64,000 bases of DNA from a phage: assembly GCA_011911785.1 (NCBI GenBank), contig GCA_011911785.1_4084.1. One strand, written 5' to 3'. Of the stretch, positions 35,379 through 39,227 are shown piece by piece. The first letter of the stretch is position 1, and every line of letters starts with the position of its first letter. The notes under the pieces are model-generated. The model did no database searches and had not been told where the DNA came from. It saw only the letters and a program-made list of their open reading frames with translations. A program made the position numbers and the translations under genes.

Positions 35379-36011
35379 ATGAGTACAAAAAGAAAACCAA
35401 TTTCAAAGTACGTGTTTCATCGCCTAGAGTATAAGCACTGCATTGCGTATGCACGAGCATTAACAGACATATTACCACGTCTGAAGGATGATAAGTTCCT
35501 TGAATGTTATGACATGCGTTTTCATAACAATGTTCTTGAGTACATAGAATCAGATGATAGTGAGTTGAATGAAGTATGGCTTGATTTCAGTCCTAGTGGT
35601 TTAGATAAAAATAGAGTTGGGAACTTGGGTCTATTTTATACGCACTGCTTGAACTTCGATTTGTCAGATAAAACATTAGTACTGGATAGTAATGAGGTAC
35701 TTAGATTGAACCTCAATGTTATGGATTATTCAGAAGAAGCATTCTTTCAAAATAGTTTAATATATGAACCGAATGATTTATTATATACTATTGTTTTCCC
35801 ATATCTACATGAGCACCTTAAAGGTACTACAGTTCAAAGAGCAGACATTACCTTTAGTTTAGTAAATTTATTCAAGTACAGTGACGTATTCAAAGAAATA
35901 TGTATTGAAGGCGGTTACTTCGATGACCTTGCTGATTTGAATAACATGGCGTTTGAAAATGATAATTATTTTAACGATACCTATATAGGCGGTTCAAGGA
36001 TAATGAAATGA
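35379..36011 (+). CDS. FQxS-motif family protein (210 aa)
   Basis: motif EEAFFQNSLIYE. Confidence 0.65.
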   Translation: MSTKRKPISKYVFHRLEYKHCIAYARALTDILPRLKDDKFLECYDMRFHNNVLEYIESDDSELNEVWLDFSPSGLDKNRVGNLGLFYTHCLNFDLSDKTLVLDSNEVLRLNLNVMDYSEEAFFQNSLIYEPNDLLYTIVFPYLHEHLKGTTVQRADITFSLVNLFKYSDVFKEICIEGGYFDDLADLNNMAFENDNYFNDTYIGGSRIMK

Positions 36012-36559
36012 GTCTACCATTAACAATAAACCCAGTACTAAAAGATCTATCTAAAGTTATTATTAACTTTTTTCCTATTGTACTACAAGATATAAAACCT
36101 ATATCAAATCTTGGTTCATGTTATATTCGACACAGTAATAATAAAAACGGTTCTATAGGTACTTTGTACATTAGTGATAGTTCATTGTTTCTTTTGCACC
36201 CTGAGTTATCAGATGAAGAAATTGCAGATGGTTGTTCGGAGGCACAGAATCGTGTACTCACACGTTATCCATATGTGTACATAAGCAGCATTAAACATAA
36301 AAATCTTGCTAATAACTTTTGCCAATGCAATCACGGTGATAACTTAATAGATTTAAATGTTGACGATGGGGTGCTTTTCCAGTACAGTACTCTATATGAT
36401 CAGTTAACAATGGATATCATCGAGTTGGATAAGCTAGTGCGTGATTACATCCCTGATGGTTTCTATCTTACAATGGATCTTAATGTACTGAATTCTGTAA
36501 TGGAACAAGGCACTCTACCAAACATTCTGAGAGACTTACGAGCATTTAAAAGACCCTGA
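36008..36559 (+). CDS. FQxS-motif family protein (183 aa)
   Basis: motif DGVLFQYSTLYD; followed by terminator. Confidence 0.65.
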   Translation: MSLPLTINPVLKDLSKVIINFFPIVLQDIKPISNLGSCYIRHSNNKNGSIGTLYISDSSLFLLHPELSDEEIADGCSEAQNRVLTRYPYVYISSIKHKNLANNFCQCNHGDNLIDLNVDDGVLFQYSTLYDQLTMDIIELDKLVRDYIPDGFYLTMDLNVLNSVMEQGTLPNILRDLRAFKRP

Positions 36560-36572
36560 TGGGTCTTTTTTC
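36551..36572 (+). terminator. rho-independent terminator
   Basis: stem AGACCC/GGGTCT followed by TTTTTT. Confidence 0.65.
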
Positions 36573-36581
36573 GTTTATAGG

Positions 36582-36610
36582 TTGACATTAGTAATGTAGA
36601 GTGTTAGAAT
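36582..36610 (+). promoter_or_regulatory. sigma70-like promoter (TTGACA-N17-TAGAAT)
   Basis: TTGACA 36582-36587, TAGAAT 36605-36610. Confidence 0.55.
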
Positions 36611-36641: not shown

Positions 36642-37190
36642 ATGGATAGCATTGTAAATATTATTGAATGCATGATTTATATTTTTAAAAACAGTCCTGA
36701 TAATAAGACTGTTAATTTTGAGTTAGGTGAATTAAATATCAACCCAAAAGAATCTCCATCAGTATATTCTAATATTACATTGTTCATTAGTGGTTTAGGT
36801 TATGTCGTAAAGATCATTAATGCAACACAACGTAGACAAGAATACAAGATGGAAATTCTACGCGGAGATAGTGAAATTCGTCTATATAATGTATCACGCT
36901 ACACTAAGATACTGGTAAAACATTCTTATGAAGATGACGAGAAGTTAGCTGTAGCTAAAATTGATTCAAACACTTTCAAAGAACAAATGTTCATGGCTGC
37001 TATGTCATATGATCAATTAACTTATAATAAGCTAGAAATGGGTTATAAATTACTTAGGTTATTAGAAGATCATTATGAAATTACAATTATGGACAAATTG
37101 CTTACCAAAAGCCAAGAGGAACTAGAGAAAATGCATTTGTTATTAAAAAAATATATTGATGATAATTTAAATTATGGAGAAGTACGTTGA
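36642..37190 (+). CDS. divergent FQxS-family-like protein (182 aa)
   Basis: degenerate motif [12 protein letters not shown]. Confidence 0.55.
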
Positions 37191-38599
37191 AAAGTAATTT
37201 AGAAAATATACGCAAAAAAGCCGATAATTTAGTACTATGTTGTATAGGGGCTTTATTTGCTGTTACTTTAGTTTCCGGTGTTGTTCATGGTAGTTTTATT
37301 ATTGCACTAATCGGTGCAGTTTTATTATTAGTAATGCTAACTCCTTTACTATTTGTTGAAAGTAATGCGTTCACTCGAACGTTGTTAAGTATAAATGTGA
37401 TGTGCTGGAGTGCGTTACTAATACATCTTGGCTTAGGGATGGTGGAATGGCACTTTACAGTTTTTGTCTTTTTAAGTTTATTGATTGTATGGCGTGACTG
37501 GCGTTGTGTATTAGCAGGTTCAGTACTGATTGCTATACATCATTTATTATTTGGATTGTTACAGGGTGCTGGAATTCCAATATTATTCGTGTTTTCTTTT
37601 CACCATATTTCGTTATGGCACATTATAGAGCACGCAATATATGTAGTAGTACAGGCAATAGTTCTGATGTACGTAGCGTACATTATGGAGAAAGATGCAA
37701 ATGAAGCAGATGAAATTCAACGAATTGCAAGATCAGTGAATTCTGAAGACGGCAATATTACTTTAGAAATACAAAATAATCATTTCAACTCCGAATTTGC
37801 ACAGACTTTTAGTAAAACAATATCAGCTATGCGTGAGGCAATTGAACAAGTACAAATTACAGTTCAGTCAATGAAAAGCAACTCCTATCATCTCGAAAGT
37901 AAAAGTAATGATTTAGCTTTCAGAACTGAAACACAAGGACAGGCACTTACTCAAATCGCTGCTGCTATGGAAGAATTAAGTGCTACATCTGCAAATACAT
38001 CTGATAACTCCAATACTGCAAAAAGTATGGTTAAAACTACAAAAGAATCCAGTACTAATGCAATTGAAAGTATCAATAATTGCAAAGAGCAGATGGATAG
38101 AATTAAAGAAGATTCTAATGCTATAGTTGCTATACTCAAAAATATAGAAACTATTGCTTTCCAGACTAATATTCTTTCTTTAAATGCCAGTATTGAAGCT
38201 GCTAAAGCTGGTGAACATGGTCGTGGATTCTCTGTTGTTGCACAGGAAGTTCGTAACTTAGCAATGAAATGTGATGCATGTAGTAAAGAAATTAAAGAAA
38301 TCGTTGATAACTCCGTAAAAAACAACAACCAAGGAATAGAACAAATCAACGAAACTGCAAGTGATATTGATTCTATTGTAAAAAATGTTGATTCACTCTT
38401 GCAGTTCATTGATGATTTAGCTATAATGGCTGAACAACAAAGCATTGCAATCCTTCAGGTTACCGAGAGTGTTAATATGATGGACCGTTCAGTACAGCAA
38501 AATGCGGAGCATGTAAAGGACACAATGATGATGGTAGACAATCAACAGTCTGAAGTACATGCTTTACAAAAAGCCACTTCGATTTTTAACGTGAAATAA
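37187..38599 (+). CDS. methyl-accepting chemotaxis protein (MCP)-like membrane transducer (470 aa)
   Basis: multiple N-terminal TM helices; C-terminal MCP signalling domain with core [35 protein letters not shown]; TTG start with TTGA overlap, RBS GGAGA. Confidence 0.8.
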
Positions 38600-38605
38600 T
38601 TTTAA

Positions 38606-38644
38606 AGCCAGGGTATTGACTCTGGCTTTTTTCTTTGCTATTAT
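38606..38644 (+). promoter_or_regulatory. intrinsic terminator fused to sigma70 promoter (TTGACT-N17-TATTAT)
   Basis: stem AGCCAG/CTGGCT with TTGACT in the loop, then a T-run that serves as spacer to TATTAT. Confidence 0.6.
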
Positions 38645-38672: not shown

Positions 38673-39227
38673 ATGGACAATTACCTATTAATCTTACAAA
38701 TTTACAACGAACTGGGAAAACTTCTTGAAACGTGTAATTCACAGGGACGTAAATTAAGAATCGGTTTCGATTATGAAATTGAATACACAGGAGAGGGTAT
38801 TGCAACGCAGCAGATGTTCACAGAAGAAAATAAAACTATTCTGTGCGTTTACCCACATGAAGGTGATGAGGAAGACTGTGTTGTTGATTTTTCATATGAC
38901 AGTTCTTGGGCTTTTATTTCACGTAATCCTCGAATGAAAGAGGCAGTGGATTACAAAGAACCATCATATGATCCTATTGCGTTGTTCAGTACTGAGAATT
39001 TAGAAGAACAAAATTTCCAGAGTTCTGTAACTCACGATAAATTAATCACTGATGCACTTACGATTGAAGCTTTAGCACGTAACTATAAATTTGATTTCAA
39101 TCTCAATAATTATTATATGTCATATAGTGCAACAGCATCATTACTCACTGATGATCAATTAGTAGTATTACTCAAGGACTTGAAAAACTACGCACAAACG
39201 AGAAAAGAACATGAAAACACTAATTGA
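38673..39227 (+). CDS. FQxS-motif family protein (184 aa)
   Basis: track ORF 38616 trimmed to ATG after RBS GAGGA; motif EEQNFQSSVTHD. Confidence 0.65.
   Translation: MDNYLLILQIYNELGKLLETCNSQGRKLRIGFDYEIEYTGEGIATQQMFTEENKTILCVYPHEGDEEDCVVDFSYDSSWAFISRNPRMKEAVDYKEPSYDPIALFSTENLEEQNFQSSVTHDKLITDALTIEALARNYKFDFNLNNYYMSYSATASLLTDDQLVVLLKDLKNYAQTRKEHENTN

Follow-up and report, generated by a model that had tools for sequence, protein, structure and literature searches.

What would a virus of Escherichia coli do with a bacterial chemoreceptor, and through what machinery could such a protein work in an infected cell? The question is raised by a gene at positions 37187-38599 (plus strand) of a 64,000-nucleotide stretch of phage DNA (contig GCA_011911785.1_4084.1 of GenBank assembly GCA_011911785.1; the whole stretch is called the window here, and positions refer to it), which an initial annotation, made from the letters alone, had read as a methyl-accepting chemotaxis protein (MCP). 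The phage-borne MCP-family protein is real and was correctly interpreted there. Judged by sequence comparison, it is built from six transmembrane (TM) helices, a HAMP-like linker and a signalling module of the 36-heptad length class whose tip is nearly identical to that of the E. coli receptor Tsr, and it is almost certainly a genuine, selected MCP, kept under purifying selection. The best explanation overall, to which we give about an even chance, is that a complete chemoreceptor was captured and retained by the phage and modifies the swimming of infected cells.

The gene, its phage and its origin

The MCP gene comprises 470 codons plus a stop codon. Its TTG start overlaps the TGA stop of an upstream open reading frame (ORF; 36642-37190, plus strand, 182 aa) within the sequence GTTGA, and a Shine-Dalgarno sequence (GGAG) lies 7 nt 5' of the TTG, bearing out both the proposed frame and its coupling to the upstream gene. 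The product scores 127.3 bits against the Pfam model PF00015 (MCPsignal; gathering cut-off 34.6, E=7.1e-37, residues 281-434), which places the predicted MCP signalling domain far beyond chance. PHROGs assigns the protein to phrog_8572, a family annotated as function unknown.

Escherichia phage A4 (ON286972) shares 98.9% identity with the window; it is an Asteriusvirus of 355,528 bp, obtained in Cork from the faeces of farm animals with E. coli LF82 as the isolation host. In the A4 record the gene is A4_379 and carries the GenBank label 'methyl-accepting chemotaxis protein', so that its identity as an MCP is already in the database; we found no publication on the gene itself, and the paper describing A4 nowhere mentions A4_379 (PMC9355613). 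Intact copies of the ORF are present in A4, the window, a 23.5-kb Logan contig that encodes an identical or near-identical protein beside the same neighbours, and at least four contigs of ~351-359 kb filed as E. coli assemblies. The exact 470-aa protein occurs on such 351-359-kb contigs from isolate assemblies (e.g. GCA_036253495.1 JAYLON010000004.1, 352,052 bp), which appear to be whole A4-like jumbo-phage genomes sequenced along with the bacterial isolates. Because at least five independent assemblies hold the intact ORF with identical flanks, it is not a sequencing artefact, and the concern that the true genome might carry an interrupted frame falls away.

Searching 50,697 phage records with tblastn, we recovered the full-length protein from A4 only. 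None of the 33 other Asteriusvirus-type records with a match carries the gene; they align to a 20-kb query only at ~44.65-47.6 kb of the window, and the two genes flanking it have no detectable homologue in any other phage. Nor does it occur in 5,426 complete RefSeq E. coli genomes or in PLSDB. In broth, infection with A4 causes no lysis of the host (PMC9355613); together with the contigs from isolate assemblies, this suggests a carrier state or pseudolysogeny, and long cohabitation with living cells would make a behaviour-modifying gene worthwhile.

The expectation that a chemoreceptor would be unusual cargo for a phage was well founded, as only one other credible complete-phage lineage with a full MCP was found among the same records, that of the jumbo Vibrio phage vB_VmeM-Yong (three records). 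In Vibrio phage vB_VmeM-Yong XC31 (MK308674, 290 kb), the 610-aa protein QAX96201 (L010:1187-3019), labelled 'hypothetical protein', is a complete dCache-HAMP-MCP receptor (MCPsignal 1.3e-39, dCache_1 1.3e-20, HAMP 3.8e-10). It and the A4 protein are both full-length chemoreceptors in large phage genomes without an accompanying CheA, and their likeness is confined to the signalling domain (33% over 134 residues). The remaining 'phage' MCP matches in the database were rejected as host DNA fragments, a transposon on a P1 plasmid and a bacterial-looking record; in the record of Microcystis phage MaAM05 (MW495066, L011 17276-22683), a protoglobin-MCP gene stands beside thiL and ispD in what looks like bacterial chromosome. 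IMG/VR holds 179 MCP-bearing contigs, none spanning the 6-TM domain (best match 41% identical), most of them short and of doubtful viral origin, and BFVD holds no viral structure resembling the phage MCP. By full-text searching we found no published work on phage-encoded chemoreceptors beyond a list entry of MCP/CheR/CheY in Nitrosospira phages (bioRxiv 10.64898/2026.05.02.722434, a 2026 preprint), and no functional study of any phage-borne MCP named here.

Outside phage, the closest matches are bacterial proteins of ~483 aa that span 99% of the phage protein and are 37-40% identical to it; they come from Enterobacter soli, E. wuhouensis, E. chuandaensis, Pseudocitrobacter, Pantoea and Siccibacter, and homologues from Cupriavidus, Paraburkholderia and Aquabacterium come next at ~31% identity. 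Their genes are chromosomal: one lies 3' of exbB-exbD in an Enterobacter-like genome, a betaproteobacterial one directly follows flhA-flhF-flhG-fliA, and others sit in unrelated contexts. This bacterial 6-TM MCP family, of which we found no characterised member, is collinear with the phage protein and shares its six TM helices, invariant residues, HAMP-like linker and 36-heptad module; the phage copy differs in being AT-rich, in its long branch, in lacking the family's glycine hinge and in being encoded by a virulent jumbo phage. A neighbour-joining tree places it as the long-branch sister of the enteric clade. Because the membrane half (41%) and the cytoplasmic half (39%) are equally diverged, the alignment points to capture of the whole gene, without domain shuffling, from an enterobacterial lineage by an ancestor of the A4-type Asteriusviruses. 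Judged by composition the acquisition is old, because the gene matches its surroundings (GC content 34.4% in the gene and 34.3% in the window; 25% at third codon positions). Among the window, A4 and the Logan variant, the ratio of nonsynonymous to synonymous substitution rates (dN/dS) is 0.03-0.08, and the codon differences in the membrane domain comprise 9 distinct synonymous and 0 nonsynonymous changes.

The host species has no receptor of this type. When the Enterobacter gene was used as a blastn query, 0 of 5,426 complete E. coli genomes gave more than a 180-bp match to the tip, falling in aer and other E. coli receptor genes; the receptor on the phage is thus of a type missing from its host species. 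A copy of host Tsr, Tar, Trg, Tap or Aer was considered and rejected: only residues ~150-470 match these receptors, at ~34% identity, and scores against the NCBIfam equivalog models are far under the cut-offs (~170 bits against 900), so that the protein is no orthologue of the named enteric receptors. It belongs to a 6-TM family absent from E. coli and is thus no host-receptor copy. Against the PADLOC defence models it gave only weak coiled-coil matches (DruC 4.5e-5, JetC 2.6e-4).

Architecture of the receptor

Residues 1-172 (37187-37702, plus strand) form a membrane-embedded sensor domain with six TM helices and no Pfam model, delimited by AlphaFold2, alignments and Pfam search. AlphaFold2 was run on the full protein with a 25-sequence alignment (mean predicted local distance difference test score, pLDDT, 85) and on the N-terminal domain alone with a 40-sequence alignment (pLDDT 90.8, predicted template modelling score 0.85). 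It places helices at residues 4-33, 37-56, 61-81, 86-102, 105-127 and 143-184, with a hydrophobic loop at 128-142, and hydropathy is high and unbroken across residues 13-168, in agreement with the six or so N-terminal TM helices originally predicted. Positive charges lie at K2, R9, K10 and K11 and in the loops at 57-64 and 103-106, and because of these the positive-inside rule would put both termini in the cytoplasm. The protein has no periplasmic domain.

Across 40 homologues of the N-terminal domain, L77, G84, H89, F90, F93, H119, F122 and H149 are invariant, and D13, I79, E87, V92, L96, A112, A116, H118, Q126, V153 and A164 are at least 90% conserved. In the model, combined with the predicted topology, the conserved His, Glu and Gln residues occupy the periplasm-facing halves of TM4, TM5 and TM6; from the arrangement of these residues alone, the His/Glu cluster may form a metal, heme or proton site. 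The phage protein keeps 22 of the 24 family-conserved positions of the domain, including every invariant His.

The domain is widespread. A phmmer search with residues 1-176 (37187-37714) returned 2,527 cluster representatives at E<=1e-3 and 459 at E<=1e-10, and the family is found mainly in Beta- and Gammaproteobacteria, where it appears to be tied to MCPs. Of ten homologues picked because their length was out of the ordinary, eight have an MCP signalling domain, in some cases together with an extra GAF or HAMP domain, and the other two gave only HAMP or no Pfam domain at all. Fusion of the domain to a histidine kinase, GGDEF or other output was looked for and not seen among these ten. None of 13 N-domain sequences matches any Pfam family, and a Foldseek search of the PDB gave nothing significant. 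MHYT, MASE domains, 5TMR-LYT and cytochrome-like domains were rejected as the sensor at the sequence level, with no Pfam or PDB match, and no conserved bacterial neighbour hints at the stimulus, since gene contexts vary (exbBD, a fliA/flhA cluster, an MHYT-GGDEF-EAL gene).

Residues 173-245 (37703-37921, plus strand) comprise a HAMP-like linker, in which a connector joins two helices, together with the beginning of the methylation helix, as judged by Tsr alignment and AlphaFold2: residues 174-245 pair with the HAMP region of Tsr (219-293), the gaps amounting to 3 residues, and the model has a helix to residue 184, a short strand at 190-193 and a helix from 203. The kinase-control module follows (residues 246-470; 37922-38596, plus strand) and aligns without gaps to Tsr 294-517, of the 36-heptad class. 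In a phmmer search of PDB sequences Tsr was the best match (6s1k, E=7.5e-36; Tsr entries 6s1k, 3zx6 and 1qu7 at E=1e-31 to 1e-36), with residues 246-469 aligning gap-free to 224 residues of the Tsr cytoplasmic fragment 1qu7. The 44-heptad Thermotoga receptor TM1143 (2ch7), on the other hand, pairs 248 query residues with 271 and so needs ~23 extra. On these alignments the phage MCP is of the 36-heptad length class, the same as the E. coli receptors. Receptors of unequal length sort into separate arrays (PMC6628036), and a matching length is therefore a precondition for joining a host array.

AlphaFold2 folds the module into two very long antiparallel helices (residues 203-340 and 342-464) with the turn at residue 341. 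The hairpin tip, with its CheA-, CheW- and trimer-contact residues, spans residues 323-358 (38153-38260, plus strand), as defined by the Tsr alignment, the family alignment and the modelled turn; the CheW/CheA-interaction core singled out in the initial annotation was located at residues 326-359. Ten of 12 Tsr tip residues are identical in the phage protein (F373, N376, I377, L380, N381, E385, E391, R394, V398 and E402), the two replacements are conservative (V384 to I, R388 to K), and G370, also compared, is replaced by T. The tip is invariant across the 6-TM MCP family and is the best-conserved part of the phage protein. Overall, the likeness to E. coli Tsr, Tar and Aer lies in the equal length of the kinase-control module, the nearly identical tip and the presence of one consensus methylation site; the differences are an identity of only ~34% (residues ~150-470), the lack of a periplasmic four-helix bundle or a PAS domain, and the replaced hinge glycines.

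Proposed action in the infected cell and rival readings

Among 39 other ORFs of the window none has a Che or flagellar domain, and tblastn detected no CheW in A4 or any other Asteriusvirus (with an E. coli CheW query whose top match, to Salmonella DNA, had 94% identity). Because the phage lacks CheW, its MCP can signal only via host CheA and CheW, and the roles put forward in the initial annotation (manipulation of host chemotaxis, titration of CheA/CheW, a membrane sensor) are for that reason sensible candidates. On sequence grounds it probably acts through host CheA/CheW arrays and changes swimming. In the mechanism that we favour, host RNA polymerase would transcribe the gene early in infection or in the carrier state, and the protein would insert into the inner membrane with both termini cytoplasmic and join the polar host arrays in mixed trimers of dimers with Tsr and Tar. 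Once in the array it would alter CheA kinase output and hence the tumble bias and swimming direction of the infected cell, to the benefit of the phage. Sensing would take place where the conserved His/Glu residues cluster, in the half of the membrane domain that lies in the outer leaflet, with metal, heme or redox state and protons as candidate stimuli. Adaptation would depend on neighbouring host receptors, because the phage MCP lacks the pentapeptide that tethers CheR and CheB.

Whether the protein still responds to a stimulus, rather than imposing a fixed bias, is a separate matter, and we put a retained response at somewhat less than an even chance. A stimulus may still be read because the sensor domain is strictly conserved; the output may be shifted or locked because the hinge is lost, the methylation sites are reduced and the tether is missing. 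The observations that weigh against the favoured explanation are the following. The glycine hinge, whose residues have been defined as such (PMC6606802) and whose bending has been argued to be necessary for packing receptors into arrays (PMC6628036), is replaced at all three positions: A292-I293 on the N-helix (38060-38065, plus strand; Tsr G340-G341) and A391 on the C-helix (38357-38359, plus strand; Tsr G439), by alignment. Glycine occupies these positions in 24/24, 17/24 and 21/24 bacterial homologues, and it is missing from all three in only 2 of the 119 closest bacterial MCPs. At the 86 positions that are at least 85% conserved among the 24 bacterial homologues, the phage protein deviates 16 times, mostly conservatively (R to K, A to S, V to I, L to I, D to E), and the hinge is the known functional site hit by non-conservative changes. 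The loss of glycine looks specific to the hinge, because the other invariant glycines are retained (G84, G345, G347, G383). With all three hinge glycines replaced, the receptor may be locked in one output state.

The adaptation machinery is likewise reduced. Methylation heptads were sought with the consensus [ASTG][ASTG]xx[EQ][EQ]xx[ASTG][ASTG], and one full match was found, at residues 258-267 (37958-37987, plus strand; E262-E263 correspond to Tsr E310-Q311 by alignment). Q256 and Q454 sit at two further Tsr methylation positions, and the positions of Tsr Q297 and E493 have become T249 and D445, so that two of the four main Tsr sites are lost. There is no C-terminal NWETF, the CheR/CheB tether; the protein ends ...ATSIFNVK. 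The phage MCP shares this lack with E. coli Trg, Tap and Aer, which rely on neighbouring receptors or adapt without methylation. Pfam does not detect a HAMP domain in the protein; a HAMP between the membrane and the methylation helices is typical of MCPs, and not universal. The promoters invoked for expression are consensus matches only. As regards the stimulus, a profile of the N-terminal domain finds no PDB chain at E<=10, cytochrome oxidase subunit I included, and by fold the domain comes closest to 6-TM signalling anchors of a generic kind rather than to proteins that bind metal or heme. At the level of the fold it resembles the hexahelical modules of dimeric nucleotide cyclases (mammalian AC9 and AC5, Pseudomonas aeruginosa ImcA and Mycobacterium tuberculosis Rv1625c), whose last helix also enters a cytoplasmic coiled coil; identity to these is 9-13%, their output domain is another, and the His cluster is specific to the MCP family. 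The 6-TM domain of the diguanylate cyclase ImcA mediates an intramembrane protein contact (PMC10904736).

These departures bear on a reading that we consider unlikely and nevertheless the first to be weighed, in which the protein enters arrays, or soaks up CheA and CheW, while locked in one state and sensing no gradient. The outcome would be abolished chemotaxis, a forced smooth or tumbly bias, cells held in place, or altered susceptibility to flagellum-dependent phages. Complete loss of the hinge, rare among relatives, fits this reading, as do the absence of two main methylation positions and of the NWETF tether, a strong near-consensus promoter-like site that could drive high expression, and a CheA/CheW-binding tip that is better conserved than any other part. 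A decoy, however, needs no sensor, yet the 6-TM domain keeps 22 of its 24 conserved positions and all its invariant His residues, with 0 nonsynonymous changes among the phage variants; moreover, each of the hinge replacements (small, aliphatic, Ala) is found singly in some natural MCPs.

A role outside chemotaxis, which we judge improbable, would have the MCP fold serve only to place the protein at a pole or in the membrane, or have the protein act as a sensor that signals to a phage partner such as the translationally coupled upstream ORF. MCPs are found at cell poles, and this localisation, the coupling to an ORF without relatives and the setting within a large array of phage paralogs would all suit such a role. 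Against it, conservation is strongest at the very residues through which CheA, CheW and partner dimers are contacted, no domain can be recognised in the upstream ORF, and no MCP signalling domain is known to have an output other than CheA/CheW-type partners. That the gene is a functionless passenger, whether decaying captured host DNA or an assembly or contamination artefact, is highly improbable: its restriction to a single Asteriusvirus lineage and the host contamination behind many 'phage' MCP matches could be read that way, but at least five independent assemblies contain the ORF undamaged between identical flanks, dN/dS is 0.03-0.08, the composition is phage-like, and 39% identity to the nearest bacterial protein leaves no room for a recent stray fragment.

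For the reading that we prefer, a captured receptor working through host arrays, the closest architectural precedent with a known phenotype is HtrVIII of Halobacterium salinarum, an aerotaxis transducer with six TM segments followed by an MCP domain, for which a membrane-located, histidine-based sensing site was proposed (Brooun et al. 1998, via review PMC13401364). The likeness is one of architecture alone, neither protein having a large extracytoplasmic domain, and heme binding by the phage domain would be pure conjecture. A stronger form of the preferred reading, which we hold tentatively and regard as somewhat on the unlikely side, is that the phage gives E. coli a new sense, membrane-embedded and histidine-based (metal, redox or oxygen, or pH), and steers infected cells by way of host chemotaxis. 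If true, a virus would be directing taxis through the behavioural circuit that biology understands best, with cells steered to sites of high phage yield or to fresh hosts. In a variant of this stronger form, the receptor without its hinge would fix the direction of flagellar rotation and so exclude competing phages that depend on the flagellum. To our knowledge, discussion of phage accessory genes has mostly centred on metabolism or defence, and there is hardly any documentation of viruses controlling how bacteria behave.

As a single intact gene in a cultivable coliphage, with E. coli chemotaxis as its output, the receptor makes the idea directly testable; ready quantitative assays exist for this system, including kinase reporters based on Förster resonance energy transfer, receptor-less strains, crosslinking reporters and cell tracking. 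It also draws attention to a large family of membrane-embedded sensors that lacks a Pfam model and comprises at least 2,500 clusters at the 50% identity level. The phage copy is a natural experiment in a host without an endogenous member of that family, and its phage-specific loss of the hinge provides a natural variant for studying how signals pass through a receptor.

Expression unit and genomic neighbourhood

The MCP gene is the second of a two-gene cassette flanked by promoter-like and terminator-like sites. At the upstream edge, a terminator-like hairpin found by hairpin scan (36548-36569, plus strand; 9-bp stem with 4 GC pairs, then TTCGTTT) closes the preceding paralog gene. It is followed by a sigma70-type promoter-like site (36582-36610, plus strand; TTGACA-17-TAGAAT with an extended -10 TG, 11/12 consensus matches). 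At the other end, a second terminator-like hairpin (38604-38629, plus strand; 11-bp stem) begins 5 nt past the MCP stop codon and overlaps another sigma70-type consensus match (38616-38644, plus strand; TTGACT-17-TATTAT), whose -35 lies inside the hairpin. The terminator-promoter element said to flank the gene is therefore present, and a second such pair precedes the upstream ORF. With the gene absent from related phages, the layout is moron-like, and the composition is not atypical. Within the coding sequence of TM2, a weak terminator-like hairpin (37301-37320, plus strand; 8 pairs, 3 GC, then TTTATTATTA) is probably a chance match, the scan having given 5 such sites with 1.7 expected.

The composite of hairpin and promoter-like site recurs in the window at 1300, 4732, 8043, 11123 and 38616 (plus strand): the hairpin holds the -35 TTGACT and is followed by TTTGCTATTAT and an extended -10 (e.g. 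AAAAAGGGA-TTGACTCCGGTCAGTCCCTTTGCTATTAT), the copy after the MCP gene being a variant. The pattern TTGAC[AT]-N16-18-TAnnnT occurs 38 times on the plus strand of the window, with 3.5 expected from shuffles, and 5 times on the minus strand; many of the promoter matches at 2-11 kb share the spacer motif GTACTGTATAAT. Such a dense set of sigma70-type sites would be consistent with early transcription by host RNA polymerase.

The upstream ORF (36642-37190) is an orphan of the A4 lineage, as judged by ORF call and homology searches, with no Pfam domain, a weak match to phrog_36809 only and no homologue outside A4-like genomes. The MCP gene had been placed inside an array of paralogs, and an iterated hidden Markov model does unite 43 ORFs of ~100-215 aa on both sides of it (17755-59237, plus strand) into one family, the nearest members lying at 36008-36559 and 38673-39227. 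That description holds for the flanking genes (17.7-59.2 kb) and not for the coupled upstream ORF, which the family model does not recognise as a member. The family corresponds to phrog_9317, phrog_22855 and phrog_12674, all of unknown function, and most pairs are beyond BLAST detection. The part of the array at 28.0-44.65 kb has no megablast match in any other Asteriusvirus. Among ORFs outside the paralog family at ~44.6-63.5 kb (plus strand), Pfam domains identify a PNKP phosphatase, a T4-type RNA ligase 1, a Dam methyltransferase, an AAA_33/Zeta-toxin-like kinase and a GNAT acetyltransferase, and the first two suggest a tRNA-repair set downstream of the array.

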